Of a stretch of 64,000 nucleotides of DNA, positions 9,804-50,486 are shown one piece after another. The notes below the pieces were generated by a model that was not told where the DNA came from, made no database searches, and saw only the letters and a list, made by a program, of their open reading frames with translations. Numbering within the stretch: the stretch's first letter is position 1; every line of letters begins with the position of its first letter. The stretch covers positions 1 to 64,000 of IMG/VR virus record IMGVR_UViG_2832949849_000001, one strand, 5' to 3'. The DNA is from a virus (Duplodnaviria > Caudoviricetes). The position numbers and the translations under genes were made by a program.

Positions 9804-9851
9804 GATGAACACTCCTTATGGTATTTTTCGAAATATGAAACCCAATTGGGC

Positions 9852-9930
9852 GGTCAAGAGGTTCGAAAGCCCCCATAAGCAGGCTGGGCGTATTTCCCTT
9901 GCGGGTATTATATTAGCCGCCCTCTCGACC
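9852..9930 (-). ncRNA. c4-type antisense RNA, cassette A (79 nt)
   Basis: Closing stem GGUCGAGAGG/CCUCUUGACC, CCC-GCAA-GGG hairpin; b' GCUUAUGGGG and a' UUUCGA complementary to a1/b1 (10030-10035/10016-10025) and a2/b2 (9826-9832/9815-9821, over the RBS). Confidence 0.8.
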
Positions 9931-10047
9931 ATAACTTTGACGCACTACTGCCTAAACAATAGATACACGAATTCTATGGACGAAAAAAAATCACTTAATA
10001 ACGGCAGTGATGACCGCTTATGGGGAAGGTTTCGACACCTTGAGCGC

Positions 10048-10076
10048 ATCATAAAACAAAAAGCTGCCTGAGTAAA
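10048..10076 (-). promoter_or_regulatory. Sigma70-like promoter of c4-ant cassette A
   Basis: TTTACT-N17-TATGAT; the -35 lies in a terminator hairpin; same layout at ~50094-50121. Confidence 0.6.
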
Positions 10077-10090
10077 GGCAGCATAAATAT

Positions 10091-10582
10091 TCATAGTGCT
10101 TTCAACTCCTTCAAACAAGCTGTCATACCCTCTTTGAAGGATTGATCCTCATACCATAAATCATCAATTTTGCACTCATTGGCATTACAGCTCATTTCAT
10201 ATGTGATTGAACGAGCCTCTAAGCCCTCTGTCGCACCAATACCAACTACAATAAATTTATAGTCTACCTGCTGAAGATATAAATTTGCACCCTCTGCTGA
10301 ATCATTTGTTTGCCACATAACATCATGATCAAGGCAACCCAATTCTTTTGATTTACTCACATAAGCACTATCTGCATTAAAGACCTTCTTTAAACTAGGT
10401 GTAGCAAACTTAACAAGAAGCTCATTGTTGCTAAAGTGCTCTATATGCTTACTCATTTCCATAGAGTGACTATAAAGCGATTGGATTGTTTGGATAGGTA
10501 AAGCGTCATCTGCACTACTATTCATGCTAATTGAACTCAAGCTTAAACCAAAAATTAACGCTATCTTTTTAAACATCATCAT
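10091..10582 (-). CDS. Exported protein, DUF3828/YbjP-like
   Basis: Signal peptide MFKKIALIFGLSL..SSA; GCLDHDVMWQTND and C...CKIDDL pattern; AT-rich. Confidence 0.5.
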   Translation of the reverse strand: MMMFKKIALIFGLSLSSISMNSSADDALPIQTIQSLYSHSMEMSKHIEHFSNNELLVKFATPSLKKVFNADSAYVSKSKELGCLDHDVMWQTNDSAEGANLYLQQVDYKFIVVGIGATEGLEARSITYEMSCNANECKIDDLWYEDQSFKEGMTACLKELKAL

Positions 10583-10644
10583 CAGCTCATATAGATTTAA
10601 TCGGTTATAAAATTATTATAACCATATTTTATTCCAATAGCATT

Positions 10645-11010
10645 TCATTCAGAACAAGCTACTAAAAAGGCCTGCTCAGCACGTGACTCAGGTGTAATTG
10701 GATCATTTAACACATCAACATTTGTATCAGAGTCAGAAGGTAAATAGTTACCTTGTTTATCATATGCCAATATTGTAGCCGCTCCCCCTGTTCTATTTGA
10801 GCAATCGAACTTTAGATTCATCACAATTGCACCGACACCTTCCAAGACCTCCTGCTTAAAAATAGTTTTAAGCCAAACACTTCCAAACGTGACTGATTCG
10901 GTATCAACATATAATTTTTCGGTTTCGGTTTCTTCTGCTAAAAACCATCTATCTTCAGCTTGAGCTGACACACTCAAAACAAGCAATACTGCACATAATA
11001 TTTTTTTCAC
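10645..11010 (-). CDS. Exported protein, surface-adhesin-E-like domain
   Basis: Signal peptide MKKILCAVLLVLSVSAQA; YVD..S...VW.K, FDC..R, YD..G, I.P.S..C pattern. Confidence 0.5.
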   Translation of the reverse strand: MKKILCAVLLVLSVSAQAEDRWFLAEETETEKLYVDTESVTFGSVWLKTIFKQEVLEGVGAIVMNLKFDCSNRTGGAATILAYDKQGNYLPSDSDTNVDVLNDPITPESRAEQAFLVACSE

Positions 11011-11213
11011 TATCTAACCCCTTTTTTAGCACTGCCCAAGAAACTCAGGCTGCAACCAATCGATTTTATCCACTTAAGATAAAAACCTTAGTGCTTATTT
11101 TGTTCAACTTATGCAAACTATAACAATGACCCTCAATTTGAGGGCCGTTAACATGCCATTTAAAAACTCATCCTCACCCACACAAGGGCCTGTAACTATT
11201 TACAGACCTTCGC

Positions 11214-11939
11214 TCAATCATTATTTTGATTAATACATCTCACTAACTTATCATCAAAATTGCTTACATGGTGTTCACCTTTAAGATAAAGCACATTACC
11301 AACTAGCTTTAAATTAAAATGTGATGCACTCATAGAATCTTCATATACCTCAACCCCATCAACACTCAAACTACCATCTGGGTTCTCCTCTGTATTTAAT
11401 ACAATCGCACTACCCCAATCTAAATCATTGGTTAAGCTGCTGTCTCTAATCCATGCAGACCTATCACCATCACACAATCGGGTGCTGCCCCATTTACCTA
11501 TATATTTACTAGGAATAAGGCTAGATTTCTCAGAATATACAAAAGCACCTAATAAGCTACGCTCCATGAGGCATTTATCATCACCTTTTAATTCTAATGT
11601 GCCCTCGCTATCCCATAATGCGGTAATTCTACAATCACTCAATGCATCATCTTCATAATGCGCACTTGCTTCTGCCTTGAAAACATATGGTTTGTTAATA
11701 ATCATCTTATCTTTTACTGGTGCAAAAAAACGATGAAACCCATATTGATTAAGAATCAACTCATAATGATTTATCCCTTGATGCTGATAAGAAGTAATAT
11801 TAGCTACTTTACCTCTACTACCAACATACGTGCCCTCCTGTATGTTTTGAGCCTGAGCCAACGATACACATCCAACCAGTAGTAATAAACTTACAAAGTA
11901 TTTTTTCATGCGGTAGTTCATATAAAGCCCTAAATTCAA
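11214..11939 (-). CDS. Exported protein, unknown function (start probably MKKYF near 11909)
   Basis: Signal peptide MKKYFVSLLLLVGCVSLAQA; paired Cys; AT-rich. Confidence 0.6.
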   Translation of the reverse strand: MNLGLYMNYRMKKYFVSLLLLVGCVSLAQAQNIQEGTYVGSRGKVANITSYQHQGINHYELILNQYGFHRFFAPVKDKMIINKPYVFKAEASAHYEDDALSDCRITALWDSEGTLELKGDDKCLMERSLLGAFVYSEKSSLIPSKYIGKWGSTRLCDGDRSAWIRDSSLTNDLDWGSAIVLNTEENPDGSLSVDGVEVYEDSMSASHFNLKLVGNVLYLKGEHHVSNFDDKLVRCINQNND

Positions 11940-12037
11940 AAATCACCAATTATTTTTACTTTTTCTTAATTACATAAAAACATCATCTGGCGCAGTTTCA
12001 ATATACAAACCAGTATTGGCATTTAATTGCACAAACG

Positions 12038-12379
12038 TCACGCTACCATCAGCGCACTCTGGCGGAAGGATTTCAATTGCTTGGTATTTTTATCTGGATG
12101 AATCATCAATTTGGCGGCTTTTAAACTTTTAGAATCATCTCCAAACTCTATAGCCTCCTCAATGCGTGCAATCAATTCACTACCTGAATAAATCGCTATA
12201 TTTTGTGACATTTTGTGTTTCACACCACCACAATCTACTACAGCTTGAGCATATTTATCCAAACCTTGCTTTGAAATTGATACTGCTTCTTCATAGCCAT
12301 ACCAATTACCATAGCTCTCTTTGATCAAATTGGTTGCATTAACCGCACCACTTATCAATAAAGCCAAAAATACCAACAT
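12038..12379 (-). CDS. Exported protein, unknown function (ends probably frameshifted)
   Basis: Signal-peptide-like LVFLALLISGAVNA; AT-rich. Confidence 0.5.
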   Translation of the reverse strand: MLVFLALLISGAVNATNLIKESYGNWYGYEEAVSISKQGLDKYAQAVVDCGGVKHKMSQNIAIYSGSELIARIEEAIEFGDDSKSLKAAKLMIHPDKNTKQLKSFRQSALMVA

Positions 12380-12465
12380 TAATTTTTGAACATATCAATT
12401 CCATTTCAATAATGACGTAGTAATAATACACATTAAAAAGCATCTTATAAATGTTTACAGTATGA

Positions 12466-12885
12466 CTACTTCATAACATCAATATCATAAATTACCTTTT
12501 CGTCAGGATACTGATTCCAACCAGTCCAAATCTCTGACAAAGTAACTTTCAAGTTATTGGCTTTTTGTACCTGATACAAAAATGCTCGCGGGGGCGATAT
12601 ATCATTAGTTCTGTCTTTTTCAAACAAGATAAATGTTTTATCATCAAGCCAACGTACTCTCAGATTTAAATTTGGCTCGCAAGTAAATCCAGCTTCATCA
12701 TACATAAAAGCATCTTTGCCATTTTTTGAAAATGAAAGGCCAGCACAGCTAGCTCCATCAATAGTCAATTTTTTACCGAGCAATTGATTTTTTACTGACT
12801 CAGCATTGGCACCAAGCCCTACACTTAACAATGCTAAACTAAAGATAAATTTAGATACTTTCAACTTAAGCTCCCGTTCCACCAC
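12466..12885 (-). CDS. Exported protein immediately after the tape-measure gene (start probably TTG near 12864)
   Basis: Signal peptide KVSKFIFSLALLSVGLGANA; GGAG RBS inside the last tape-measure codons; two Cys. Confidence 0.65.
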   Translation of the reverse strand: MVERELKLKVSKFIFSLALLSVGLGANAESVKNQLLGKKLTIDGASCAGLSFSKNGKDAFMYDEAGFTCEPNLNLRVRWLDDKTFILFEKDRTNDISPPRAFLYQVQKANNLKVTLSEIWTGWNQYPDEKVIYDIDVMK

Positions 12886-15779
12886 TCGTTACATTCGCAA
12901 TTTCAGGATGTGATACCTGACGCTTGATTGGCGCATGGGCAATCTGACCTCCCACGCTCCCCTGATAGGCCACGCCAGCACCTCTGCTTGATGCTGGTAG
13001 CTTAACCTCTTGTGGCTGTATATTAGCAGCGTTTAAAGCAACATTATTAGCATTCACAGCAACTTGTTGTGATTTTGGTTGAACCACAGGCGGCGTTTTA
13101 ACTTGATGCAGTTTTGGCTTGGTTTGACTTGGCTTAGAACCAAGACTCACTCTAAATGCACCTGGTCGGCGAGATTGTAAATCTTTGGTAGTGCCATGAA
13201 CATGGATGCTTTTACCAGCCCCAAAAACCATGCCCTCTTTTCTTGCACTGGTTTCCATGTCATTAACCCATGCTTTTTTATTTTTTTCATCAGACATGTT
13301 TGGGTTAGCATAGTGTAAGTGACTACCAACACTAGACGGGCGGCCATTTTCACGCTCTTTTATGTATTTCATGGCATAGGCTCTCGTTCTTGCGCTAACA
13401 GCCGATGAGGGCATATTTTGTACCGAACCATAAGGATTATTATCTACCCACTTGCCGTTGGCATAATAGCCTTTAGGCCCATTGATTTTGGTAAATTGAT
13501 TTTTAGCATTGGCCACATCACTCATAGAGTTACCCCATACGCCTGATTCAAGCCTGTTTAGCAAAGTATCCATTACTCCATTAGCCTGTGCTTCAAACGT
13601 AGCTTGATCCTTGAATTTAACCACTTCGGTATCTGTTACTTTAATCAAATTTTCAATGTCTTGGTCTGTCAATTGTAAACTCGACCAGTAGCATTGGCAT
13701 TGGACGGAGTGCCTTGCCCCGATTGTTGATTAACATGCTGCGTTGTCGGTTTATTGTTGCCAGTAACCATGTTTGCATACCTAGCAGCAGCTTCTTTGCT
13801 TTGCCATTCAAAATCAATATGGCCTGCGGTTGCCTTGCCTGATGGTTTGGTATATTCATCTCGAATGATGTAATCTTTTTTGTCTTTAAATCCTTGTTTC
13901 TTTAGCTCATCATGCATCTCTTGAACAATCTTAGGGGCTAAATTACGTCCTTCTGCCTCACTGGCTTTATTCCCTGACTGATTGTTGAGAGTCATATCAA
14001 ATTTTAAGCCTTGTGTATGTTTAGAGTTCTTACTATTTACTTGATGCCAAACATCATTAAATGCACTAAACCAATGCAAACGGCTACCCAGTTTATCTTG
14101 CATGGTTTTGCAAATTCAATCGTACCTTGTTCGGTTTTACCTCCACCGATTGATTCGGTAACGGTTTTTCCTTTGAAATTCGCATCAACGCGTTTTAGTT
14201 TTAAATCCTGCCAAGTAGTCAATTTACGACCATTTGGCTGTGCCTGTTGATTGGATTTAGGTACTTCAACCCCTGCATCCATTGAGCCCATATTCTGTCT
14301 TTTGGGGTCTCTGCACCAGCATCCATGCTATACATATTTTATCATCGCCTACGCCCACAAATTGCTTGGTTTTTCCCAAGCATCGCCAGCATAGCGACTC
14401 ACAGTATTCCATCCTTCACTAATAGTTTGACCAACTGGCGTTTTAGCAATAGCTTCAAACAATCGGTTAAAACCCTCTTTGAACGCATCAAATGCCTCTT
14501 TACCCAGACTTGTCAGCTTGTCAAAAAACACCTGTACTTTTTCAGGAACGATGGTTTTCCATAAAGCAATACCCGCTATGCCTATGCCTTTCCATGTGGT
14601 ATCAGCAAGTCCTTTCACTGTTGACCATAAGGAACTCGAATCAATACCAAGCTTGTCAAAGAATGTTTGAAATTTACTAGGAATTAATGACTGCCAAAGA
14701 TGGCTAGCACCTGATTTGGCAACATCAATAAAGCCTTTCCATGATCCAAACATCTTTTTGCTTAAATCTTTATCAATCGCCTTATCCACACGCTCAACAA
14801 AATATTCTGTCAAAGTAGAGCCGCCTAAGCCTCCAAGAATTGCACCGACAACACCACCAACTGCCGTACCAAGTACAGGCACAACAGAGCCAATAGCAGC
14901 ACCTGCCGCACCGCCTGCCATTGCGCCAGCCACACCACCGCCAGCTACTGCAAAGTTTTTAGCATGTTCTTTGTTTTTTTCATGGCGCTCAAGGTCGCTT
15001 TGCTCGACACTAATACCTTCAAACAGCGCAAACAAAGCAGAAAGTGCACCGCCTTTGCCAATCAGCTTCAAACCTTGTTTTAAAATTTCCCACTTTGAGC
15101 TACTTGGACCTGCTGGACTTGGATTGGAATTGGGTGGTGCAATCGGTGGTACGCTAGGATTTGGCGATGTTGGTGGTCTTCTTGGTGTTTGCGGATTGCG
15201 CCCTGGTATCAGCAACGGTGATTTGAGCAGATTGCGCAAAAGACCACCGCCTGCACTCAAAAACCCCAAACTAGATGCAAGCATACCCAGTAGCGGTAAA
15301 AGTTTGCCCATCCACGACAATAAGCTGCTTCGATTGTTTTTGAGGTTCTTGTTGATTTCTTTGAGCATCAATTCTTGACGGTGATTGCTGCGAGCTTGAG
15401 CATCGCGATAACGACGCTGCTCACGGGTCAATTGTTTTTTCTTTTGATGCTCACCTTGATTGGCCAAAGGATGTGCCGTGTTGGCATTTCCGATTTGTTG
15501 AGCCTTATTTGAGGTGTTGGCCAAGCGTGGGCGGTTGGTTTGAACAATCGGTTTGCGCTGTGTTGTTGGCGTGGATTGACCTTGGCTGCTACCGTCCAGC
15601 CGCAAGCGTCCTGAAACCACCATTCGTTGCCCTGATTTTTGTATCTTGATGTGGTTTAAAATGGTTTCACTGTTTTTGTGCGTGGCAGCGACGGTGTTTT
15701 CAAGCGTTTTGATGCGCTTTTTACCGATTAAAAATCCATCATCGTCGTGCTGTAATTGAATCTGCAATTTGGTTGACAT
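12866..15779 (-). CDS. Tape-measure-like protein with C-terminal peptidoglycan hydrolase domains (M15-like peptidase and SleB/Hydrolase_2-like); split over four ORFs
   Basis: DDDGFLIG N-terminus, TM/glycine zipper GAMAGGAAGAAIGSVVPVLGTAVGG, W/F repeats; SKHTQGLKFD (H-x6-D) plus GHID; TEVVKF..NGVMDTLLNRLESG..NQF..HYANP. Confidence 0.7.
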
Positions 15780-15811
15780 GAAAAAACCCATTACGTGGTT
15801 TGCAATGGGTC

Positions 15812-15852
15812 ATTATCAATGCGGCTGTGAGGGTGTTTTAGAGATGTTCCCT
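15812..15852 (-). promoter_or_regulatory. Putative late promoter (tape measure)
   Basis: AGGGAAC-N28-GATAAT followed by a hairpin plus T-tract. Confidence 0.75.
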
Positions 15853-15892
15853 CACTTGAACAAATCATCAATCGGTGACCAGTTATCTACCA

Positions 15893-16743
15893 TTAAAGGC
15901 ATTTTTGAGTTTTCCCCGCATATTCATTCAAACTGTCTAACACCGCTTGTGTATTGGTTTGTGACAGCCAATTGGTTTCAGAAATATCCAGCTTCAACAT
16001 CGGCTCAGGCTTCACGTCAAATTGACGTAACCGATGCTCAGCGTCCTGTAAACGCCATAAAGCATCATCCAATACAGATGCCATTTGCTGTTTTTCTAAA
16101 CGCTCTTGTTCCACTACAACGTCGGCAATTTCCAAATCACTGACAACTTGGCCAAGTCGATTACGCACACTGTCCATCACCACACGCCGCTCGATGTCAC
16201 GTGCTTTGAGCCATTCCATTTGCTGCTTAGAAGTCAGGCGATCCAAATCAAACACACCGTCCATCACCATTTCATAACCACGATTGGTGGCAAAATTAGG
16301 GACCATCACGTAATCAAAGCCGTAAAATTGTGTCGGGGCTTCGGGAGTGGGTGTGAACACACTTGAAAAGCCACCGATTTTGGCTTGATACCATTCCCAA
16401 GCTTACGACCCAATTCATTGTCCAAAAACTCAGCTTGGTGCTCGATGGTTCCATCTTGGCTGGCAGTGATGTGGATGGTACGGATGGCCGGCTCAATCGC
16501 CACGTATTTTTGACCTTGGCCATCATTGGCCAATACGGTTTCACTCGGAAGCATGCCCCATTCAGCCCTTACCCCATGCCCCAAATAGCCATACATGTCA
16601 CCTGAATTGACCATCTCTTGCACTTGCGGCCCGTTAATCAAACGCACCACTTGAGCCACGTTGAAATTGCGCGGCTTACCGATGTGCTTGCGCCCTCGGT
16701 CGGTAATGTTGTAACGGATGATTTCCGATTTGTTTTTTGCCAT
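15893..16743 (-). CDS. Prohead (head-processing) protease, P1 Pro-like, frameshift near 16400
   Basis: DRGRKH.G..RN, MYGYLGH, and KIGGFSS in the downstream frame. Confidence 0.65.
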
Positions 16744-16781
16744 GATGTACCCTGCCTAAAATGAAAAACCCACAAAGTGAT

Positions 16782-16822
16782 ATTGTGGGCTAGGTTTGGG
16801 TGAAGGATTTGAGGCGTTCCCT
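16782..16822 (-). promoter_or_regulatory. Putative late promoter (protease)
   Basis: AGGGAAC-N28-CACAAT; close paralog of 6731-6771. Confidence 0.75.
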
Positions 16823-16936
16823 GAATCTAGAAAAAGAACTTTAACTAAAAAAAATTGTCTCACTCCTGCTATGAATAATGGCAATGTCAAGTAATATTAT
16901 TGCTTTTAAACACCATAATGTGTACGATGTATTTTA

Positions 16937-17787
16937 GGATCTGTTGAACATTCATAATTTCAACCAAATCAAGCCACAAGCAAGTGCTACGGTGCTAATG
17001 TAACTGTTTAGCAGCTTATCGTAGCGACTGGACAATGCTCGGTAATGTTTTAAATTGGCAAAAGTGTTTTCAACCACATGCCGAGCCTGGTAAATCAACC
17101 AATCCATATGTGAGTTACTGGTTCTGGCATTTTTCTTCCGTGGAATATTGGCACGTACTACCTTTGAATAAGCCAAATTCCTAAATTCTTCAGAGTCATA
17201 ACCTTTGTCTGCATTTAAAAACTCAGTATCTTTCAAGTCCAAAAGCTGCAGCAACATCGGTGCTATTTTAATATCATGAGTAATGCCATCGCCCACAAGA
17301 AACTCAAGCGGATTACCATGTGCATCAACTGCCAAATGAATTTTTGAACTGTTGCCGCCAATACTTTTGGCGATACTTTGATCGCCACCACCTACGGCCC
17401 CAGCACTGCTCTGATGTGCTCGAATATGAGTCGCATCAATTGAAACCCATTCCGTATCAGCGCTTTGAATCAACCTTTTGAATAATTTATAAAATAAACC
17501 TGTTGCCGACCACCTACGAAATGCTTTGAATACAGTATTGGCCTTTCCATAACAACTGGGCAAATATCGCCATTGGCAACCCGTTTTGAGGCGATAAATG
17601 ATTCCTAAAAAAGTCTTTTTCAAACTGGGTTTGTCATAAACATTCAAATCTAGGAGAATGGACTTTAGCTTCTGCCATTGTTCTTCTGTGATGATGGTTG
17701 CAAGCATGGATAGAGGGCGATTAAAAGTTGTTTGGCGATAATATTTTAACGTCCTCTATCCTATCCATCCAAATGTTCAACAGACCC
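16937..17787 (-). mobile_element. IS5-family (IS427-group-like) insertion sequence, 851 bp
   Basis: 16-bp TIRs GGATCTGTTGAACATT / GGGTCTGTTGAACATT (15/16), TA on both flanks. Confidence 0.9.
16952..17707 (-). CDS. IS5-family DDE transposase
   Basis: TGCQWRYLP, IDATHIRAHQ, ADKGYDS, RHVVENTFANLK. Confidence 0.92.
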   Translation of the reverse strand: MLATIITEEQWQKLKSILLDLNVYDKPSLKKTFLGIIYRLKTGCQWRYLPSCYGKANTVFKAFRRWSATGLFYKLFKRLIQSADTEWVSIDATHIRAHQSSAGAVGGGDQSIAKSIGGNSSKIHLAVDAHGNPLEFLVGDGITHDIKIAPMLLQLLDLKDTEFLNADKGYDSEEFRNLAYSKVVRANIPRKKNARTSNSHMDWLIYQARHVVENTFANLKHYRALSSRYDKLLNSYISTVALACGLIWLKL

Positions 17788-18402
17788 TAAATTGATGATT
17801 ATCAATGGCCATATGAAGGTGATGGAGTGTGAATAAAAAAGGACTGATTGGATTTGGATTGCAATAGGAGCATCAGTACCGTGTTTGAATTTTTTAAAGA
17901 TTTTTTATTGAATTTGGTTATTGAATTGTTTTTGTTGTATCTTTATTGGTTACATAAGGATGCTTACATTGGTTATTACGAAGATCAAATTCGTTTTTGG
18001 GTGGTTCCGGTTGCTTTGGGTTTTACCGTATTGGAATATTTGTTTTGGTAAAAATTGATTCATTGAATCAGAGGTTTGAATCAAAATATATTTGCTAGCA
18101 AAAAATCCATTAAAATTGTAAGACACACACTGTGGTCATCATTCAATCATCGTTAATCAAGAATTTTTAAAAAAGCAGTTTAAAATCACATCAGTGTAAC
18201 TAATTGGATAGTCCGATAAACATCCAATGGGCGTCCTGTAAAAATATCCAGCAGTAAAATCAAGATGTGATCGATTATCAATGATTAAAAGTTTGGTTTT
18301 CGGCAGCGCGATGCTGATTAGAATTTCAATTTGAGATTAAAAACATAATGTAATATTTGCATTACATTATCGGTTAAAGTCGAAAAAATGATTTTAAATT
18401 GA

Positions 18403-18672
18403 ATGACCAAGTTAGGTTATGAGATGGTTGCTTTACACCATTTTTCCCCAAATAATGAAAAGCTGCAATCTTATACAATTAAGGTAGATTCTCATTGTTT
18501 TGAAGAATTACTTCTCTTAATTGAACGTTGGCATCCAACGAAAAAGTCATTAATTAAAAATGAACGTAATAATGGCACCATACCAGAACTTTATACCGTA
18601 GTAGATTTCAAAAACCTACCCCTTAATTGCATCACAGGGATATCAGTATTAACTATTAATATCCCTATTTAG
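18403..18672 (+). CDS. Hypothetical cargo protein
   Basis: 89-aa AT-rich ORF convergent with the portal gene; no recognisable motif. Confidence 0.4.
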   Translation: MTKLGYEMVALHHFSPNNEKLQSYTIKVDSHCFEELLLLIERWHPTKKSLIKNERNNGTIPELYTVVDFKNLPLNCITGISVLTINIPI

Positions 18673-18682
18673 CTTTTTTAAT

Positions 18683-20179: not shown

Positions 20180-20204
20180 AGAAAACCCCAATTTAATTGA
20201 GGTT

Positions 20205-20245: not shown

Positions 20246-20252
20246 ATACTGT

Positions 20253-35532: not shown

Positions 35533-37433
35533 ATGAACTTCATCGACTTATTCGCTGGTATTGGTGGCTTTCACCTTGCTCTATCCCGTCTTGATATGAA
35601 TTGTGTTTTTGCTTCTGAGATAGACTCTCATGCTCGAGAAGTTTATAAACTCAATCACAAGATTTCTGATGAGATTTTCAATGAGGACATACGCTCTATT
35701 AGTCCTGATGCCATTCCAGACCATGATATTTTATGTGGTGGATTTCCATGTCAGCCGTTTTCGCAAGCTGGGCACAAGCGCGGCTTTGATGATGTTCACA
35801 AATCAGAGCGTGGTAATTTATTTCATTACATAGCAGATATTATTAAAGAAAAACGTCCTAACGCGTTTATTTTAGAAAATGTACGTCATCTTCTTAAACA
35901 TGATGAAGGCCGAACTTTCCAAACAATACGAGACATTCTTGAAAAAGAACTTAATTACACTGTTTATTTTAAAATCATCAAAGCTACTGATTTTGGCCGA
36001 CCTCAACACCGACCTAGAATCTATATTGTTGGATTCAACAATCATACTGTAAACACAGTACCAAGTTTTGAATTCCCAAAACCAACTGGCACCACAATGA
36101 CTATGTCAGACGTATGGGAAGGAGATTGTTCTCGCGAAATTGGTTTTACATTGCGCGTAGGTGGCAAAGGCTCACCTCTAAACGATCGAAGAAACTGGGA
36201 TGGCTATTTAGTTAATGGCCAAGAGGTACGATTATCTCCAAAAGAAGGAAAGCGCATGATGGGCTTTCCTGATGCATTTCAATTATCAAAATCAAAAACA
36301 CAAGCCATGAAGCAATTGGGAAACAGTGTTTGTGTTGACGTAGTTTATCATGTAGGCCTCGCAGTAAAAGAATACCTTGAACAAAATCAGATATCTAAAA
36401 GTGAAAGTGACGGCATGGCAAATTTCAACAAAGGGGAATGGGGAGAGCTGTATGCTTTTTTAAAAGCAATTCAAAATCCTCAAATAAAATTTGGTGATAC
36501 CAATACCAATATTTTAAACACAAACGACTTTATTACTGTTTTTTCATTGCAACATAATGACCAACCATATCAATACACCATACAAAATAATCAATTAATT
36601 ATTTCAGAAAATGGCATATTAATATCAGAGCACAATATTGATGAAATATTAAACCAAGAACGCCTGAATCAGCTTAAAAATGACATTGTTAATTCAAAAG
36701 CAACTTTTGAAATACAAGATCAAAATATACTTGAAACACTCAAAATCAATTCATTTAAAGGCAGCTCTTTTCAAAAAAAGATGTGAGTGTGGGGTTTAAC
36801 TATCAACATATGTGCATTGAAAATGACCCACTGGGAATTAAATCATTTTTAGGTAACAACCCTACCCTTTTAAATGCCTCATCCAATACAAACTTTATTT
36901 TCGAAGTAAATGGGTTCCAAGGCAGAATTGATGATGTCAACTCAATCGATACCAAAAATAAAGTACGTGATCGCATTGCCTATATTTTAGAGCACGGCGG
37001 TAGTTTTACATTTGATAAATGTGAAAAACCAACCTTTGAAGAAAACCTTTTCAGAGTAGACAGCTGCATGCCTCAAATTTTAGGTAATTTACTGTTGCAG
37101 TACTACTCTGGTAGTGGCTCTGAAATCTCACAGTTGATTACTGATGACTCAGAAAAAATCAAAATAAAACGATTGTTAGAAGCCATGTTGCTTGGGATGT
37201 TCCCAAGTAAACTGTGGGATGGCAATTACAGCTCAAATGGCATTATCGTAGTACGTAAATTAGGTGACTTACTGCTGTATCACACTTTAAAGCGTAATAT
37301 TTTAATGAACTACTTATTTGAAAATACAAAACTTGATACGCCATCTACTTCACGCCATGGTTTTGGTAAACTTATTGAAGAAAAGAACGGCTCAAAATTT
37401 TTCAAACTGAATTTACAAATCCGAAATACTTAA
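35533..37433 (+). CDS. C5-cytosine methyltransferase fused in frame to an HpaII-family restriction endonuclease; 1-nt deletion in an A-run near 36775
   Basis: FAGIGG, GFPCQPFS, ENV, PQHRPR, LGNSV; then NKGEWGELY ... GIKSFLG..PTLLNAS..TNF ... DTPSTSRHGFG..KLNLQIR. Confidence 0.8.
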
Positions 37434-40351: not shown

Positions 40352-40375
40352 GTATGACGAATATTAAAAATATAG

Positions 40376-40405
40376 AAAAACGCCACCAAATTGGTGGCGT
40401 TTTTT
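40376..40405. terminator. Bidirectional terminator, duplicated at 41341-41370
   Basis: AAAAACGCCACCAAATTGGTGGCGTTTTTT. Confidence 0.7.
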
Positions 40406-41510: not shown

Positions 41511-44500
41511 TCAGCAGCTGCAATCAATGCTGCAGGTGAATCTCCAACACTCACACCATCCCTCAACAAACTGCCCCACAAACCTTTCAAACCTTGCCTT
41601 AATTCGTGTCAAAGTGGATTCGCGTTCTAAAATTCTTGGCACAAAAGACAAGCTCTTGGCGATTTCATCATCACGCGGCATGGTATTGGTAAAAATAAAG
41701 CTTTCGACCATTGTTTGGAAGCATTCATCTTTCAATTGCTCTTCTTCTACCAATCATGAATGGCTTGCTGTTTTTCTTGCTCCCAAAAGTCTGCAAAAGC
41801 TGTATCAAACGCCTCACTTGATTGAATGCCTGGCAACACTTCTTGCACAAATTTTTCAAGCAACGGCAACTTCACCCGCAATTTAGGTTCTTTAGAGGCA
41901 ATGTCCAAAATGGCTTGAACTTTGCGCATAAAGGTTTCTTGTCCTGAAATCCAATCGCTATGGTCTTCATCGGCCACGCCTTTGAGTAGATTCAGAATGT
42001 AGGCGACGTTGATGATGTCGGTATGGATCAACTCAGTTTCAAAATCCAACTCGTCCAGAACCGAAGTTTTGGCGGCTGGTGCGTCAGTAGGAATTTTCTT
42101 ATGGCGTTTGACCTTGTCGTACAAGTCCAAGTATTTCGATTTGAAACCTTCAAATGTATTGTCGTCCATCGCCAAATCGTCTGTATTGAAGTCGGAGAAC
42201 GATTTTAACGTTGTTTGCAAACGCAATAAGTCACGATAGGCTTTTACAAACTCAGCTTGTTCATTTTCATCAGCCAAAGCATCCACGCTTTGTACCGTCG
42301 GAGTAATACCCAATAAAGCATCCACAGCCTTGTGATATTTGGCCAAATACTCACTGTATGGCTGCAACAGCACTGTTTCATTAGCATTGGTATTGGCAAA
42401 CAAGGTGACAGCCTCATCGGTCTTGTCTTTCAAATTGCGAAAACAAACGATGTTGCCATGGGTTTTGGAAGCATTGTAAATGCGATTGGTACGTGAAAAA
42501 GCTTGAATCAAACCGTGGTATTTCAGGTTTTTATCCACATACAAGGTGTTCAAAGTTTTGGCATCAAAACCGGTCAAGAACATGTTCACCACCAGCAAAA
42601 TATCGATTTGCGCCTCTTGTGGCTGTTTGGCGTGTTTCTCAACTCGTTTGGTGATGTCTTGGTAGTAGTTGTAAAAGCTTGCAGTATCTTTCAAACTGAA
42701 CTGTGAACCGTATTGCTGATTGTAATTGGCAATGAAACGTTCCAAATGGTCACGACTGACTTGAGGCTGCTCACCATCATCACCCATGTCTTGCTGCCCA
42801 TCTTTGTTCTCAGCTTCATTGGCGGCATAGCTGAAAATGGTCGCTACCTTCAACTTCCGATAATTAGGATTATTCGCCAAAGCTTCAGCTTGGACTTTCT
42901 CAAACAACTGGTAATACTTGATCAAAGCCTGCACACTGCTGACACAGAAAATGGCATTGAATTGATAACGGTTGGTTTTCTTTGGATGTGCATCCACAAT
43001 ATAACGAACAATTTTCTCCAAACGGCGCTCGTCTTCCAAAGTCTCTTTACTGGCCGTGGTTTGAATATGGTCAGTTACATCTTCATCTTCGGGCTCTAAG
43101 TCTGAAACAATGTCCAATTCATTGTTAGAAACCCGCTCTTGGGCTTTTTCTTGGTATTTACCCACGTATTCAACCGAAAAACGCAACACATTGTCGTCAC
43201 GAATGGCATCGGTAATCACGTATTTGTGCAAACACTCATTGAACAAGTCTTTGGTGGTCTGAGGGATGCCATTGGCTCGACTGACGTTCTCTTCTAAAAT
43301 TGGCGTACCTGTGAAGCCAAACATCTGTACTTTGGTGAAAAACTTTTTGATATTCTGATGGGTTTGGCCAAACTGACTTCGATGGCATTCATCGAAAATG
43401 AACACCACTTTCTTATCTTGCAAATACGAAATCTGATTTAAATATTTTGGACTAGTCACCGCAATATTCAGCTTTTGCAAAGTGGTGACAATCAGCTTTT
43501 TCTTGCCGCCTTGCGCTTGGCTATCTGTAATTTGCTTAATCAACGACGACGTGTTGGTGGTCGTATCCACACAACCATCAGTATAATGATTGAATTCAAT
43601 TGCTGTTTTGTAATCAAGGTCTTTGCGATCGACCACAAACATCACCAAATCCACTTCTGGCAAGGTCTGTATCACTTGGCTGACCTTAAACGAGGTTAAG
43701 GTTTTGCCTGAGCCTGTGGTATGCCAAATGTAAGCGTTTTGATTCGATAACTTGGCTCGCTCAATCAAGGCCTCCGCCGCATAAAACTGATACGGACGAA
43801 ACAGCATCAACACTTTGTCACCATGATTCAACACTGTGTAATGCGTGATCATCTTTGCCACATGGCAAGGGCGCAAAAAGTGATCAGAAAACTGGTGTAA
43901 GTCCGAATAAATATTATTGTCTTTGTCTGCCCAAGAGAAAGTAAAATCGAAGCTGGCTTGGTGGTTGTTGGCAAAATACTTGGTACTGGCACCATTGCTG
44001 ATGACATAAATCTGCGTGTACAAGAACAAACCATGACCCACCCAATACGAATCACGGTGGTAACGGTCGATTTGATTGAACGCCTCTTTCAAATCCACAC
44101 CCAAACGCTTGAGCTCAATTTGCACCAAAGGCAAACCATTGATCAAAATCGTCACATCAAAACGGGTTTTATAGGTATTTTGTTGGGGATTGTGTATTGT
44201 CACTTGTTGTGTGACTTGGAATTCGTTTTGACACCAATGTTCTTGGTTGATGAATTGAATGCTATGGGTATCACCATTGTCGCGTTGCAATTGGTAACGA
44301 CTGCGCAAAATCTGCGCCCGTTCAAACACCGTACTGCCTTGGCTCAAATAATTAAGCACCAAATGAAACTCTCGCTCGCTCAAAGGTGTGGTGAGTTCAT
44401 TGAATACTTCCAATTGCCGTTTGAGATTGCGCAACATGGTCGCTTCATCAGGCAAAGCCACCAAGTCATAACCCAAACCACTTTTGCTATCACCCGTACC

Positions 44501-44557
44501 AGCCAATTGTACCAATAAGGCTTTTTCCAATTCGTATTCGCTTTGAACCAAACCCAC
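41511..44557 (-). CDS. hsdR: Type I restriction enzyme R subunit, frameshift near 41750
   Basis: RFDVTILINGLPLVQIELK, HTTGSGKT, DECHRSQ, FTGTP, FLTGFD, QAFSRTNR. Confidence 0.93.
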
Positions 44558-44677
44558 TTCCCCTTATATTTTAAGCTTAATCTTTTTATTTAGATGATAC
44601 TGTCATCATTCACAGTATAAAACATGCTCAGAGGATTTTGTAAGCATCTGGGCATGTTTTGGTCGTTAACTTAAAAA

Positions 44678-45698
44678 TTAAGCTGCTCTAGCCGCTTCAA
44701 CTTTCATCAAAATCCGCATTAATGTCACCACTTCATTACAGACTTCAGTTAAGTCAAAGTCTCCACCCTCCCAAGCGCATACCCAATAACGACCATTAAT
44801 TTCAGCCCAAGTATTGTCTCCATCATTAACTATCCAAGATAACTTCTTCAACTCTTTACAAGCCAATTTCACCAATGCGTCTGTTTGTTTATCAATACGA
44901 ATTTGTAAACTATATTGCAAAGGTTTCTCATCGATATGTAAATTAACAACCACTTCAGTCCATGTTGGACAATGATTATTAGCAAAACGCAAAGCAGGAC
45001 CATTTGGCCAAGTATGCACCCGATAATGAACTTCATAACCTTTTAATTGGTTTTCCAACGCCTCAGTAATGTGATCACGGACATGTCGATAAAAATCATC
45101 ACGCAACGTCACCATTTTCTTAATGTCACCCAAATGCTCAACCACAAAATCCACTTGCTGCTCATTCATCACATCCACCCCCAATTGTTCCAATGCATTA
45201 AAAATTCCCGCGCAAACAAAGTCCATTTGTTATACGGCTGGTTTAACAAAGCCTCTGCCAACAACGGCCTAGTGTGCGTTGCCAATGTGCGATAAGACAG
45301 CCCTGTCCAAGCTGCAGCATGGCTTTTTCCATCCACACACAAAATCAAAAACACCTGTTTTTGCCTGGATAATGTTGGCGAACATAGCGTTCATAATCAG
45401 TAAACGGATTGTTTTGATGGTGACCAATTTTGCATTCAATCGCCAACACTGCCTGATCGGTTTCAATCAACAAATCAATGCGCCCCTTACTGGTCACCAC
45501 CTCGGTGTGTACGTTTTGCACATCGCCCCAAGCCTCGGTATCCGATTGTGCCACGCCACACTCACGCAAAGCCGCCAACAAGCCTTGGTAAAACACCCCG
45601 TTTAATCCATGCTCATTTTCTGAATTTAAAAAAAACGCCAACAACTCTGTGGTCGGGTTTTCATAATGCTTGCGCAAAGCCGTATCAAAAAACGTCAT
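44678..45698 (-). CDS. PD-(D/E)XK nuclease-family protein between hsdS and hsdR, split over three ORFs
   Basis: EN.TTELLAFFL...H.L, GRIDLLI, IECKI..H..NPF..Y. Confidence 0.7.
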
Positions 45699-45920
45699 TT
45701 CTTTTTACTCGTGTGCAAAGACTTCGCTTGCTCCAACACGCTTTGCAAACGTGATAATTCATCTACAGCCACATCGATACTGTCCATACAGCTTGTCCCT
45801 TATTGGTTTTGAAATATTGTTTTATTTACAGGCCGCTTTAGTAAGCGTCCTGTAAGCTTTACAAGCGTCCTGTAAAAACAGCCAAAGCGCAGGGCTGCGG
45901 CTTTGGCTGTTTTTAAACGC

Positions 45921-47212
45921 TCACACAAACATCTGTTGCAACAAACCTTGCTTCCACACACGCGCTTGTTCCAATTGCTGCGCCAAAGCGTCGATTTTGG
46001 CATCAATGGATGAAAGGCAGGCGGCGATTTTGGTCTGCTCTGCAAGAGTTGGTATTTTTATTTCTACCTTGCCTAAATTAGTTTTAGATATACCCAATAC
46101 AGAAATACCTGTAGCCAATTTTTGAATTTGTGCACGAACTGCCAAAGTTTGCATTAAGTAACCATGAAATCCCAAAGCAAAGTCCTGTTTCGGTCTAGCA
46201 ATATAAGTATGCAAACCTGCAACAAGTTTTTGATTGCCTAAATTCACTATTTCGATGGTTTTACCAATATCTTTATAATCTTCAGAAGCATCTGCAATGA
46301 CCAAATCACCAACTCTTAAAAACCGCTCTTCATCTAATTTGCTAATCTCAACCTCAGCACTTAGAAAAGGTACTTTTTCCTTAGTCGCATCAAACAAGCT
46401 AGAAAATTTTGTATGAATATCCCCATAATGAATATTCATAATTTCACCCTGTTCAGATAACAAAGCTCTCGAGTAAGAATTTGTCTGATGAAAAGTAAAT
46501 TTTTCAGAAAATATTGTGGTTTTCCAATCAGGAAAATCCTGACCATTATCGTCCTGAAAGCGAAGCTTTGGCTGAACAATTGCTGCATCATGCCTTGCTT
46601 GTATTGCTGCCACAAATCATGTTCTTGGCGCAAAGCCGCGATTTTGTCATCCACCGCAGATAGAAAAGAAGCGATTTTGGTTTGTTCTTGTAGACAAGGT
46701 ATATTTAACTCAACATTCCCTAAATTTCCTTTTGAAATACCTAAAACCGAAATCCCTGTTGCTAATTTTTGTATTTGCTCTCGAACCTTAAAAGTTTGCA
46801 TCAAATAACTATTAAATCCCAAAGCACTAGGTGAATTTGGACGGGCAATATAAGTATGCAGCCCAGCTACAGCTTTTGGTTATTTAAGTTCACTACTTCA
46901 ATGGTTTTACCAATATCTTTATAATCTTCTGAAGCATCAGCAATGATTAAGTCTTTTACTTGTAAAAATTGGTTTGTAGCAATTTTTGTGTGTCCACTTT
47001 ACAGCTTAAGAAGGGCACGTCTTCCTTAGCTACATCAAACAAAGCAGAAAATTTCGTATGAATATCACCATAATGAATATTCATGATACTACCTTGCTCA
47101 GCCAATAACGCTCTTGAGTAAGAATTTGTATTATGAAAAGTAAATTTTCAGAAAATTTATGTACTTCCCAAGCGTCCTGAAACCCCTTAAACCTCAACTT
47201 AGGCACATTCAT
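45921..47212 (-). CDS. hsdS: Type I R-M specificity subunit with two near-identical TRDs, several frameshifts
   Basis: P.LR..W start, two IP.L.EQ.KIA..LS..D.KI and KQG.(M/L)QQ(L/M)F blocks; ATGA overlap with hsdM. Confidence 0.88.
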
Positions 47213-48794
47213 TTGCTGCCCTCCGCAAACGGGTTTTCAATGCCCAATTCGCTGCAAAAATCGGTAATTTGTGCTTCTATCGCCACGCTGTCGGCTTTCA
47301 CTTGGCGCAAAGCCGCTGCCACTGCGCTCAAATCAATCGCCGCTTCCGCTTCAAACGTATCCACATATCGGGGAATATTAAGGTTGTAATCATTGGCTTT
47401 AATAGACTCGATACTTGCCACAGATGCGTATTTGTCTTCGCTTTGGCGTGTGTTCAAAGCCGTTACAATGCGCTCGATGTGTTCGGGCAAGAGTTTGTTT
47501 TGGGTTTTGACTTTTTCAAAATCGTTGCTGGCATCAATGAACACAATATCATTCGGATTTTGACGGCATTTTTTCAACACCAAAATACAGGTTGGTATGC
47601 TGGTGCCGTAGAATAAATTGGCAGGCAAGCCAATAATGGCATCAATCACATTCAATTGCTCAATTAAGTATTGGCGTATGTGCCCTTCTGCCGCGCCACG
47701 GAACAACACGCCATGCGGTAACACAATCGCCGCTGTACCCTCTTCTGACAATTGATAAACAATGTGCTGCACAAACGCCAAATCGGCTTTGGTTTTAGGC
47801 GCAAGCTTGCCGTATTGGCTGAAACGCTCATCGGTACTGGACAGCATCGGGTCAGCGCTCCAATGCGCTGAAAACGGCGGATTGGCGACAATGGCATCAA
47901 AGCGCAAATCCAAGTGTTGCGGCTTTTTCAAGGTGTCATCTTGCTTGATTTCAAAATCGGCAAAATGCACGTCGTGTAGCAACATGTTCATGCGGGCCAA
48001 GTTGTAAGTGGTGCGGTTGAGTTCTTGACCGTAAATCTTGGAAATTTTGTTGGCTTCACGTTTCACACGCAACAACAACGAGCCCGAACCACAAGTTGGG
48101 TCGTACACATTGCGTAGCTCGGTATTGTTCACCGTTACCAAACGCGCCAACAAAGTCGATACTGGTTGCGGCGTGTAAAATTCGCCTGCTTTTTTGCCTG
48201 CACCTGAAGCAAACTCACCAATCAAGTATTCATATGCATCACCCAACACATCGCTATCAGTATTGGCCAAATCAAAATCAATCAAAGCCAAACGCTGAAT
48301 GATTTGTACGATGGTCTCATTGCGATCGTCGGCTGTTTTGCCCAATTTGGTTGAGGTCAAATCCAAATCATCAAACAAATGACTGAAATCGTCAGCTGAA
48401 TCCGTACCTAAAGTCGATTGCTCAATGTTGCGCAACACTTGTTGCAAGTCATCCAAAATATAACCTGCGCCACTGCTGTCTTGTTTAGAACGTTCGGCAA
48501 TGCTTTGGAACAATTCCGCAGGCGTTAAGAAGTAGCCCAACTCTTTGACGATGCTGTTTTTAACGGCACTGATATAAGCGTTGTAATGTTCATCACTTGG
48601 CTTGAGTTGGTCGTAAATCAAGTTGTCTGATACCAATATCTTATTGGCATAAGCAACCATTTTTTCAGACAGGTATTTGTAGAAATAAAGCCCAAGATGT
48701 AATCACGGAATTCATCGGCATTCATTTTGCCGCGCAAAGCATCGGCAATGCTCCACAATTGGCGTTGCAGTTGGCGTAGTTGTTCTTCTGACAT
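47209..48794 (-). CDS. hsdM: Type I R-M methyltransferase, frameshift near 48690
   Basis: LWSIADALRG start, GDAYEYLI, GEFYTP, DPTCGSG, NPPF, YNLNIPRYVD. Confidence 0.93.
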
Positions 48795-48963
48795 GTTTGG
48801 TATCTTTATATTGAGTCAGGCTTGACCTGAATGGGTTATTCGATTTTGGCTGATTATAGCCCAAGGTTTGTTTAGGTGGCGTGAGGTATGAATACTATTT
48901 CAACTTTATGCAATCATACCAATAGCATTAAAAACGTTACTTATTTGATTTGTTTTGATTCAT

Positions 48964-48993
48964 AAAAAGCGTCCTGTAACCCTACAGGACGCC
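48964..48993 (-). terminator. Terminator built from an inverted pair of the DUS-like motif
   Basis: AAAAAGCGTCCTGTAACCCTACAGGACGCC. Confidence 0.75.
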
Positions 48994-49020
48994 ACCATTT
49001 CATCTATTCAAACCAAAGCA

Positions 49021-49851
49021 TTACTTATAAATTCCCACCGCTTTACGCCAATCTTTTTGGCTCTCGTAATCAGCAGCCCAAGGATAATCACGCATCGTCG
49101 TGTGATTCAACGCCACCATATCATGTTTTCTGCCAAAGTTTTGCGTATGGATCCATACAACTTTGAAATGTTCGCTCACTGAGCTGACCATTTTAGGATT
49201 GATGACGCTCAAAGCCATTTTGTAATGGTTGAACCAACAGAAAATCCAATCCATGCTTTGGGCGGCATTGACCAAGTTTTTGACTTGATGTTCTTCTAAA
49301 ACGTATCCACTTGGCTTTTCAGTGGTGAGCAACAAGCGGTGCAAGTATTCAGTAGCCTCGCCAACTTGTTCCAAAGTCAACTCATCAATACTGGATACAT
49401 TGAAACGCTGATGCACTAATTTGTAAGCATCAGGATACAACAAACCTTTTTTACTGACCACGGCATTGACCGCATCACGCAAACCTGTGCGTTCGTCTGT
49501 GGTGGTTGAGCGTCCTGTAAACTTCTGTGCTTCGGTTTCGATTAAATCCAACACCCATTTGCGGAATTGTTTGGCAATTTCAGTTTTGGCAAACATTGCA
49601 ACCAAATGACAACCTCGCAAACTGAAAATTCTCACAGGCATCATAATATTACCCGTTTTCCTAATGACACTCATTTGAGGGTCATTGACATACTGCTTGA
49701 AATTCATCTTCATTGCGATTAAAATTTGCGTAACTGCATCGGCTTTTTTATAGCCTAATGCATTAGCCAATTCAGTAGCAGTAATCCAAATTTGATTGTC
49801 AGGTTGCGAAACAGGATTCAAAGAAACTTGATTGAAAGTCAGTGCGTTCAT
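49021..49851 (-). CDS. Bro-N domain phage antirepressor (copy 3)
   Basis: MNALTFNQVSLNPV..., RIFSLRGCHLVAMFAKTEIAKQFRKWVLD; middle nearly identical to copy 2, C-terminus different; AGGAG RBS. Confidence 0.82.
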   Translation of the reverse strand: MNALTFNQVSLNPVSQPDNQIWITATELANALGYKKADAVTQILIAMKMNFKQYVNDPQMSVIRKTGNIMMPVRIFSLRGCHLVAMFAKTEIAKQFRKWVLDLIETEAQKFTGRSTTTDERTGLRDAVNAVVSKKGLLYPDAYKLVHQRFNVSSIDELTLEQVGEATEYLHRLLLTTEKPSGYVLEEHQVKNLVNAAQSMDWIFCWFNHYKMALSVINPKMVSSVSEHFKVVWIHTQNFGRKHDMVALNHTTMRDYPWAADYESQKDWRKAVGIYK

Positions 49852-49898
49852 GATGAACACTCCTTTGTAATTTTCGAAATTTAAAAGCCCAATTGGGC

Positions 49899-49977
49899 GG
49901 TCAAGAGGTTCGAAAGCCTTACAAAGACGGCTGGAGTTATTTCCCTTACGGGTATTGTATTCCTCACCCTCTCGACC
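49899..49977 (-). ncRNA. c4-type antisense RNA, cassette B (79 nt)
   Basis: Same closing stem as cassette A, CCC-GUAA-GGG hairpin; b' CUUUGUAA complementary to b1 (50063-50070) and b2 (49863-49870); a' matches a1 50076-50081 and a2 49872-49878. Confidence 0.8.
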
Positions 49978-50486
49978 ATGATTTTGACGCACTACTGCCT
50001 AAACAATAGATACACGAATTCTATGGACGAAAAATATCACTCAATGACGGCAGTGATGACCGCTTTGTAAAAAGGTTTCGACACCTTGAGCGCATCATAA
50101 AACAAAAAACCACCTGTGCAAGGTGGTTTGGGTTGATAACATCCATTAAATAGGAGGCAAATTATAGTGGCTCACCTTTTTGAATGATTGAGTACTTTTA
50201 AAGACTTTTGCCATTCGAGGTATTCGCTTTGAATCTTTGGCTTTTTAAATTTATCATTTAAAGTTACCAAATCATGGCTATCATAGCCGAGGTTTTGTTG
50301 AGCATATAATGTAAAGCTTTTAATTGACAACATGGATGTTCCCTATGAGTTGATATGGTCAGCAGACAGCACAAATCAAAATTTCGCTTCAGTTGGCTTT
50401 TAGAATCATTGTGCTAATAAATAACCCGTCTATGAAGACGGGTTGATGAACACCAATTTACTTCACTACATTTAAATTAAATGTAA

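Follow-up and report, generated by a model that had tools for sequence, protein, structure and literature searches.

The stretch of DNA described here (the window) covers positions 1 to 64,000 of a provirus record of 80.6 kb in IMG/VR (IMGVR_UViG_2832949849_000001; Duplodnaviria, Caudoviricetes), which was delimited automatically and has an estimated completeness of 66%. Its minus strand contains two modules, cassettes A and B, which share the same order of elements: two short boxes (a1 and b1), a structured RNA of the c4 type, two further boxes (a2 and b2), and a gene for a Bro-N antirepressor, named ant-A and ant-B, respectively (Table 1). The boxes on both sides of the RNA are complementary to two segments within it, which we call a' and b'. 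A terminator-like hairpin lies upstream of each module; in module A, it belongs to the preceding gene.

Table 1. Coordinates of the two modules and of other features of the prophage. Positions refer to the window or, where marked, to the whole 80.6-kb record; lengths are in nucleotides (nt) or amino acids (aa).
Feature	Position	Strand	Details
Integrase	1-1200		phage type, with arm-binding domain
Third Bro-N antirepressor gene	4932-6859	-	split by IS3-family element (orfA/orfB, 5238-6370)
Two-gene block	6783-8739	-	between ant-A and third antirepressor
ant-A, Bro-N antirepressor	8941-9803	-	two frames: 9489-9803 (107 aa) and 8941-9558 (205 aa)
ant-A ATG	9803	-	
b2-A CCATAAG	9815-9821	-	overlaps Shine-Dalgarno AAGGAG (9812-9817)
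a2-A TTCGAAA	9826-9832	-	read from sequence
c4-type RNA A	9845-9929	-	RF02221 match, 68.0 bits (Rfam); stem-closed core 9853-9929
a'-A TTTCGAA	9862-9868	-	read from sequence
b'-A GCTTATGGGG	9871-9880	-	hairpin loop
b1-A CCCCATAAGC	10016-10025	-	10-nt complement of b'-A
a1-A TCGAAA	10030-10035	-	complement of a'; read from sequence
Promoter-like site of module A, TTTACT-17-TATGAT	10048-10076	-	consensus match only
Terminator-like hairpin of gene upstream of module A	10063-10082	-	
Two small genes	10091-11010	-	directly upstream of cassette A
IS5-family transposase	16952-17707	-	between portal and tail-fibre genes
First restriction-modification system	35533-37433	+	HpaII-like
Other restriction-modification system	41747-48660	-	type I
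ant-B, Bro-N antirepressor	49021-49851	-	intact, 276 aa; phrog_2127 2.5e-68, Bro-N 1.9e-10
ant-B ATG	49851	-	
b2-B TTACAAAG	49863-49870	-	overlaps Shine-Dalgarno AAGGAG (49860-49865)
a2-B TTCGAAA	49872-49878	-	read from sequence
c4-type RNA B	49892-49976	-	RF02221 match, 68.5 bits (Rfam); stem-closed core 49900-49976
a'-B TTTCGAA	49909-49915	-	read from sequence
b'-B CTTTGTAA	49919-49926	-	hairpin loop
b1-B TTACAAAG	50063-50070	-	read from sequence
a1-B TCGAAA	50076-50081	-	read from sequence
TATGAT -10-like hexamer of module B	50094-50099	-	conserved with module A
Terminator-like hairpin upstream of module B	50107-50129	-	
CRISPR array	51435-51945	-	type I-F-like
Fourth antirepressor, phrog_63 family	record 64977-65738	-	between O-like replication gene and CII-like gene
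CI-like S24 repressor	record 66420-67301	+	beside fourth antirepressor

Family, fold and flanking boxes of the two RNAs

Both RNAs are full-length members of the Rfam family RF02221 (sRNA-Xcc1; model positions 1–87 of 87), and their scores exceed its gathering cut-off of 53 bits. At gathering thresholds, the Rfam scan of the window returned eight matches, six of which are repeats of a CRISPR (clustered regularly interspaced short palindromic repeats) array and two of which are these RNAs; no further RNA family was found in the last 16.6 kb of the record at E ≤ 0.01. A preliminary description of this DNA, made without database searches, had proposed the Rfam C4 and c4-a1b1 models as a check. 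Neither of these (RF01695 and RF03163), nor isrK, matches at E ≤ 10 in the 901-nt stretch of either cassette; as a positive control, the P1 c4 region scores 68.8 bits on RF01695 and 51.0 bits on RF03163. Since the C4 covariance models fail and RF02221 passes, we assign the two RNAs to RF02221 and regard them as c4-like in layout. RF01695 and RF03163 both belong to clan CL00128, and RF02221 has no clan in the Rfam output despite its C4-like topology and flanking target logic.

In both RNAs, a 9-bp closing stem surrounds two hairpins; the loop of the second (3') one contains b', and the unpaired stretch behind it contains a'. The immI region of phage P1 has the same RNA architecture. The length of 79 nt given in the preliminary description reflects an arbitrary boundary; the stem-closed core measures 77 nt. 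The folding energy is −31.7 kcal/mol for RNA A (z −3.27; none of 200 shuffled sequences folds as well) and −24.8 kcal/mol for RNA B (z −2.18; 6 of 200). In an alignment of 61 related RNAs, 84.6% of cells pair, compared with 28–51% when partners are slid, and the covariation score is 0.395 against at most 0.136, values that are favoured by the choice of alignment and structure by the analyst, the structure having been hand-written from the Rfam alignment; 14 of 20 pairs change on both sides. RNAalifold, run on a MAFFT alignment, recovered only seven pairs and missed the closing stem. Most of the 61 RNAs begin with G (50) and have a C at the conserved tail column past the closing stem (57). The 77-nt core, the 5' G and the tail C are consistent with processing by RNase P and with repression in trans.

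Every box listed in the preliminary description is present on the minus strand, and its central observation holds: the a box is common to the two cassettes, and b1, b' and b2 differ in concert. RNAs A and B have the same a' and unrelated b' loops, each of which is matched by its own b1 and b2. As in immI, the boxes on either side of the RNA, a1/b1 upstream and a2/b2 downstream, complement a'/b', and b2 lies over the ribosome-binding site of the first gene, which in both cassettes encodes a protein with profile matches to Bro-N (Pfam PF02498) and phrog_2127. The overlap of b2 with the Shine-Dalgarno sequence had been described correctly, as had the absence of an icd-like open reading frame (ORF) in between: only 48–49 nt separate the end of the closing stem from the antirepressor ATG in both cassettes, which leaves no room for one.

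The homology between the modules begins in the T-run of the upstream terminator-like hairpin and continues through the TATGAT hexamer. The alignment from this −10-like hexamer up to the ATG has 250 columns, of which 39 differ; the differences cluster in b1, in the P2 stem, where they are compensatory, in the P3 stem and b' loop, and in the a2–b2 stretch, with eight elsewhere.

A 24-nt string from the 3' part of the RNA has no exact match in viral contigs, and the conserved 19-nt core occurs at at least 80 loci there. Complementarity across the family was assessed for 55 distinct b'/a' segments, including A, B and one copy from Vitreoscilla stercoraria. A three-way match was defined as one word of the P3 hairpin with an exact complement both upstream and downstream, and cognate sets were compared with 2970 non-cognate sets. 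Three-way complements of at least 6 nt occur in 36 of 55 cognate and 107 of 2970 non-cognate sets, those of at least 7 nt in 24 and 10, and those of at least 8 nt in 7 and 0, respectively. The score is 7 for cassette A, whose upstream side alone gives 10 nt, and 8 for cassette B. Matched boxes are observed well beyond chance.

The nearest named relative of the prophage resides in V. stercoraria DSM 513 and has a syntenic backbone. It matches positions 12866–17365 at 98.7%, 6426–8817 at 91%, and 48930–50945 and 51436–52735 at about 90% identity, with the matches spread over three scaffolds that end in copies of insertion sequences (IS). The relative contains one RF02221 RNA, at the locus orthologous to B, which has the same scaffold and upstream flank, the a' TTACGAA, the b' GCTTGTTAG and matching changes in the flanks, so that the a and b boxes are changed at all three sites. 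Its locus orthologous to A lacks an RF02221 RNA, and the antirepressor encoded there has a different N-terminal part. Concerted switching of three sites is seen when cassette A is compared with cassette B, and again when orthologous loci of the two related prophages are compared.

Predicted specificity and proposed mechanism

RNAduplex predicts that each RNA pairs more stably with its own flanks than with those of the other cassette. For c4-A, cognate and crossed duplexes have energies of −33.0 and −20.9 kcal/mol at the upstream sites and of −21.8 and −14.7 kcal/mol at the downstream sites; for c4-B, the values are −26.9 and −21.7 kcal/mol upstream and −17.1 and −13.6 kcal/mol downstream. Cognate duplexes are thus 3.5–12 kcal/mol more stable, and by this model the main effect of each RNA should be to silence its own leader. 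Across the 80.6-kb record, an a target accompanied by a b target in the correct orientation is found at the four cognate sites; the target scan also flagged places near 42104, 72643 and 77264, none of which is beside an antirepressor start.

One of the closest known systems is immI of P1 and P7; the annotated record of P1 lists, in order, promoters, a1, b1, the 77-nt c4, a2, b2, icd, and ant1/ant2. It resembles cassettes A and B in having a promoter, a1 and b1, a structured RNA of about 77 nt, a2 and b2 over a ribosome-binding site, and an antirepressor operon; P1 c4 likewise carries b' in the loop of its 3' hairpin and a' in the strand after it. According to the available parts of two papers, c4 is cut out of the P1 transcript by RNase P (PMC5320573), and P1 and P7 differ in c4 specificity, with the boxes deciding heteroimmunity (PMC5320573, PMC8201110). 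Concerted changes at three sites between related phages are common to P1/P7 and A/B. The preliminary description had invoked P1 and P7 as a precedent for changes in the b box; the concerted three-site change stands, but P1 and P7 differ in both boxes rather than in b alone, with two nt in a (a1, a' and a2) and two in b (b1, b' and b2). An alignment of P1 with D6 has the pattern of A and B, in that a is identical and b differs at all three sites, although P1 and D6 are two separate phages with one module each.

Several features set the present modules apart from immI of P1 and P7. They give no sequence or covariance-model match to it, they lack icd, b2 covers the Shine-Dalgarno sequence of the antirepressor gene itself, and the antirepressor belongs to the Bro-N type. 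In place of C1, the main repressor is a CI-like S24 protein, and the prophage has an integrase. Finally, P1 and P7 have one module, whereas this prophage has two.

Taking the observed layout together with the P1 model, from which each step of the mechanism is borrowed, we propose the following scheme. A promoter abutting the upstream terminator would transcribe a1–b1, the structured RNA of about 77 nt, a2–b2, and the Bro-N antirepressor gene. The RNA would be cut out of this transcript, as RNase P does in P1, and its b' loop and single-stranded a' would bind a2 and b2, either on the transcript of origin or on a different one. With the Shine-Dalgarno sequence covered by this pairing, no antirepressor would be made, and the CI-like repressor would remain active. 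We consider it probable that A and B are paralogous modules that serve secondary immunity in the manner of P1 immI, and that both belong to a single integrated P1-like prophage with a lambdoid CI/CII switch. From the duplex energies and the precedent of P1, P7 and D6, we infer that the two are orthogonal. If so, the lysogen would silence two classes of incoming antirepressor, and the phage would escape lysogens that hold a single specificity, as the preliminary description had suggested.

A number of points weigh against this interpretation. Among the 55 cognate sets, 19 have no three-way match of at least 6 nt. A wide-window ranking of duplex energies (55 RNAs against 55 flanks) is noisy, with the cognate flank first in 11 of 55 cases upstream and 4 of 55 downstream; RNAs A and B rank third to fifth upstream and eighth to ninth downstream. 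The crossed duplexes of A and B are still sizeable (−13.6 to −21.7 kcal/mol) because the 7-nt a box is common to both, and partial cross-repression between the cassettes is possible. With no C4 or c4-a1b1 match, the case for homology to P1 c4 is one of architecture, and neither cassette has the icd gene between RNA and antirepressor that is part of immI. The promoter scan returned a consensus match for module A and no full promoter match for module B. The ant-A gene is read in two frames in the record, and the CI-like S24 repressor is a likely, not a certain, target of the antirepressors. Expression, processing and repression by the two RNAs are carried over from P1.

Related RNAs and module sets in other prophages

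RNAs of the same covariance family, and others of the C4 type, have been described from several other contexts, which we summarize from the available parts of the publications. The sRNA-Xcc1 RNAs of Xanthomonas and Xylella belong to RF02221, and in Xanthomonas they also lie upstream of a gene thought to be under their control. Five tandem copies occur in one island of Xylella fastidiosa Temecula1 (PMC12189769), and integron cassettes of Xanthomonas pair sRNA-Xcc1 with symE toxin genes (bioRxiv 10.1101/2025.06.18.660453). The parts of this literature that were available treat sRNA-Xcc1 as an integron-cassette small RNA tied to HrpG/HrpX and virulence, and contain no link to c4, antirepressors or a/b boxes. 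In the present record, the genes flanking both RNAs are phage genes. The APSE phages of Hamiltonella have a c4 RNA beside a BRO-N gene as well as isrK and, in some strains, sRNA-Xcc1 beside an ORF6N gene, and the authors checked the a'/b' complementarity (PMC7313666); unlike in A and B, three different Rfam families are involved, which the accessible text does not present as parallel specificities. Acinetobacter baumannii AB5075 expresses many Group 1 C4-like small RNAs with variable loops from one genome (PMC5320573). These differ from A and B in that the authors favour host mRNA targets and, in the part of the paper available, report no flanking a1b1/a2b2 boxes or antirepressor genes. No paper found on c4-type RNAs presents several modules in one phage as parallel specificities, as far as the accessible texts go.

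A further prophage system differs from A and B in RNA family and mechanism: in IsrK-AnrP of Gifsy-1, a prophage small-RNA region is said to control an antirepressor. Antirepressors of Salmonella prophages reportedly act in trans across co-resident prophages.

To describe the distribution of modules, 79 whole viral records, namely those that contain 80 of the loci with the conserved core, were scanned with RF02221; they were selected by this core and some are related, and the counts are not population frequencies. Two or more matches at E ≤ 0.001 were found in 21 of the first 50 records (17 with at least two above the cut-off) and in 11 of the other 29 (9 above the cut-off), which gives 32 and 26 of 79, respectively. 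The multi-copy records include some rated 92–100% complete, with two to five copies that lie tens of kilobases apart. Twenty copies were fetched from seven multi-copy records, and in the six records with at least two fetched copies, no P3 (b') loop is shared by two copies. For 19 of the 20 copies, an ORF of at least 60 aa comes within the next 160 nt; 16 of these ORFs encode an antirepressor-type N-domain (KilA-N in eight, Bro-N in five and P22_AR_N in three; none in the remaining three), and many also carry P22_AR_C or ORF6C. Carrying several modules with different loops is a common prophage design. The survey of b-box alleles suggested in the preliminary description finds loops that differ within each of the six records, and it shows that two modules in one prophage are nothing exceptional. 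In other proviruses, as many as four or five modules occur; one of 49.7 kb, rated 100% complete, contains four different loops, each before a KilA-N or Bro-N protein with P22_AR_C.

These data also bear on a different explanation, by which the modules are cis-acting, self-contained silencers similar to type I toxin–antitoxin systems, each of them shutting off one harmful gene in the lysogen, and the b differences are a by-product of mosaic acquisition, without selection for inter-phage immunity or for escape from it. The occurrence of the same RNA family upstream of symE toxin genes in Xanthomonas integron cassettes would fit such a role, as would the variety of antirepressor N-domains that follow RF02221 RNAs and the abundance of multi-copy records, and the A locus of V. 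stercoraria, with its other N-terminal part and no RNA, speaks for modular exchange. Exactly such a concerted change of a and b is, however, seen between P1 and P7, which, in the text available, are described as differing in c4 specificity (PMC5320573). Moreover, any RNA able to act on its own leader in trans will likewise act on an identical leader that enters the cell, and within the six records no loop is shared by two copies. We therefore regard silencing in cis without an immunity function as unlikely, and retain the reading of A and B as immunity modules.

Antirepressor genes, prophage backbone and wider significance

Ant-A and Ant-B are mosaic relatives. Over approximately the first 25 residues they are almost identical; identity is about 49% in the remainder of the Bro-N domain, residues 86–175 of Ant-B are again nearly identical to Ant-A, and the C-terminal tails differ. 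The two pieces of ant-A have profile matches to Bro-N (4.1e-06) and phrog_2127 (1.3e-26 and 3.1e-32), and the frame breaks at a T5 run near position 9542. The preliminary description did not mention the two-frame reading of this gene. In the 4510 nt aligned to V. stercoraria at 98.7%, all seven single-base indels are one-base homopolymer deletions in the present record, and genes that these indels split are intact in V. stercoraria (297 and 977 aa). Because the break in ant-A also lies in a T5 run, it is probably a sequencing artefact, a homopolymer under-call, and the gene is probably intact. The loss of single bases is systematic: the seven indels (12866–17365) all lie in A/T runs of the record. 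It is most simply this loss that explains the many split genes, among them the portal gene (three ORFs), phrog_4620 (three), a tape-measure-like gene (three to four) and a tail-fibre gene (two); HsdS, DnaC and the M.HpaII/R.HpaII junction are probably split in the same way.

It could also be supposed that only circuit B works and that cassette A is a decaying duplicate with an antirepressor pseudogene. This would agree with the reading of ant-A as 107 and 205 aa in two frames, and with IS3 and IS5 insertions and many other split genes in the same prophage. The position of the break in a T5 run and the homopolymer nature of all seven indels, in genes that are intact in V. stercoraria, speak for a different origin of the frame change, and all RNA boxes of cassette A are intact, with an upstream complement (10 nt) longer than that of B. 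Decay of cassette A is in our view highly improbable.

Two further antirepressor genes, which had been overlooked in the preliminary description, lack such an RNA. The third, again of the Bro-N type, is split by an IS3-family insertion, which is real; the V. stercoraria copy is uninterrupted. Upstream of it, neither the Rfam scan nor the target scan found a c4-type RNA or a/b boxes. The fourth, of the phrog_63 family, lies beyond the window; its leader has no a/b boxes, and that part of the record has no match to an Rfam family.

The backbone of the prophage is P1-like. Profile searches identified portal, sheath, tube, PmgG-like, baseplate and fibre genes, a protein of phrog_1014 (the family to which the P1-size capsid gene belongs), Hdf-like and DarA-like genes, and one small and one large terminase gene. 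The only integrase found, a phage-type enzyme with an arm-binding domain, lies at the late-gene end. Beyond the window, the record contains a lambdoid switch with genes for the CI-like S24 repressor and for CII-like, O-like and DnaC-like proteins, together with a RecT/exonuclease operon. No second set of essential genes was seen (terminase, portal, major capsid, sheath/tube and CI/CII/O/DnaC each occur once), and no ParA/ParB or RepA among the ORFs scanned by profile. DNA similarity searches of a phage collection matched Aaphi23 alone, at 75% identity over 36% of the query. Both cassettes sit between blocks of P1-like virion or Dar genes. The location of both modules inside one prophage, one of the claims of the preliminary description, is supported by the single sets of virion genes that surround them and by the recurrence of both neighbourhoods in one V. 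stercoraria genome; the presence of two c4-type antisense-RNA/antirepressor modules is supported as well. That the cassettes come from two elements, whether tandem prophages or a chimeric assembly, is scarcely credible: an automatically delimited record of 66% estimated completeness, with restriction-modification systems, a csp gene, the CRISPR array and IS elements between phage blocks and the integrase at the late-gene end, might invite the idea, but there is a single terminase pair, portal, capsid, sheath/tube set and CI/CII/O/DnaC region, P1-like virion or Dar genes flank both cassettes, and both neighbourhoods recur in V. stercoraria, though on three scaffolds.

The prophage also carries varied cargo. 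The CRISPR array, located between the DarA/LPD block and csp/c4-B, has seven repeats of 28 nt (the last with one change), six spacers of 32–33 nt, and an AT-rich leader. No Cas family matched among the ORFs of the record scanned by profile, and the spacers, compared with the window and with the loci fetched for comparison, matched only themselves. V. stercoraria has a syntenic array at the same place, with more repeats. One of the two restriction-modification systems consists of an M.HpaII-like C5 methylase and an HpaII-like endonuclease, and the other of a type I HsdR/S/M set and a PD-(D/E)XK gene; the V. stercoraria relative does not share what lies downstream of ant-B, so that the restriction-modification cargo is variable. 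The two-gene block between ant-A and the third antirepressor, which is 91% conserved in V. stercoraria, encodes an AAA_21/AAA_15 ATPase (phrog_38223, split in two ORFs) and a phrog_34356 protein, and may be an abortive-infection or defence module. One of the two small genes upstream of cassette A has a weak match to Adhesin_E (surface lipoprotein); both are absent from the corresponding place in V. stercoraria. The element with the IS5-family transposase is the same as that which ends the V. stercoraria scaffolds.

To a specialist who knows P1 and P7, the single case of cassettes A and B is unsurprising. If they are orthogonal, they constitute a natural, nearly isogenic pair of RNA–target specificities, with the same scaffold and a box and different b boxes, by which the recognition rules of c4-type RNAs would become directly testable. 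The finding also connects the literature on sRNA-Xcc1, which is concerned with virulence, with that on P1 c4, which is concerned with immunity. About one-third of the 79 related viral records contain several modules, which suggests that the silencing of antirepressors often provides secondary immunity through multiple channels and bears on the interplay of co-resident and superinfecting temperate phages. As a tentative and still doubtful extension, RF02221 as a family may supply many temperate phages of Proteobacteria with their c4-type immunity RNA. Prophages would then routinely contain between two and five modules, each differing from the others in its a/b boxes, which together would act as a combinatorial immunity code; new specificities would arise when three short sites switch in concert on a conserved scaffold. 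If this is true, the set of modules would widen what a lysogen can silence, and an incoming phage would pass any resident that lacks one of its keys.

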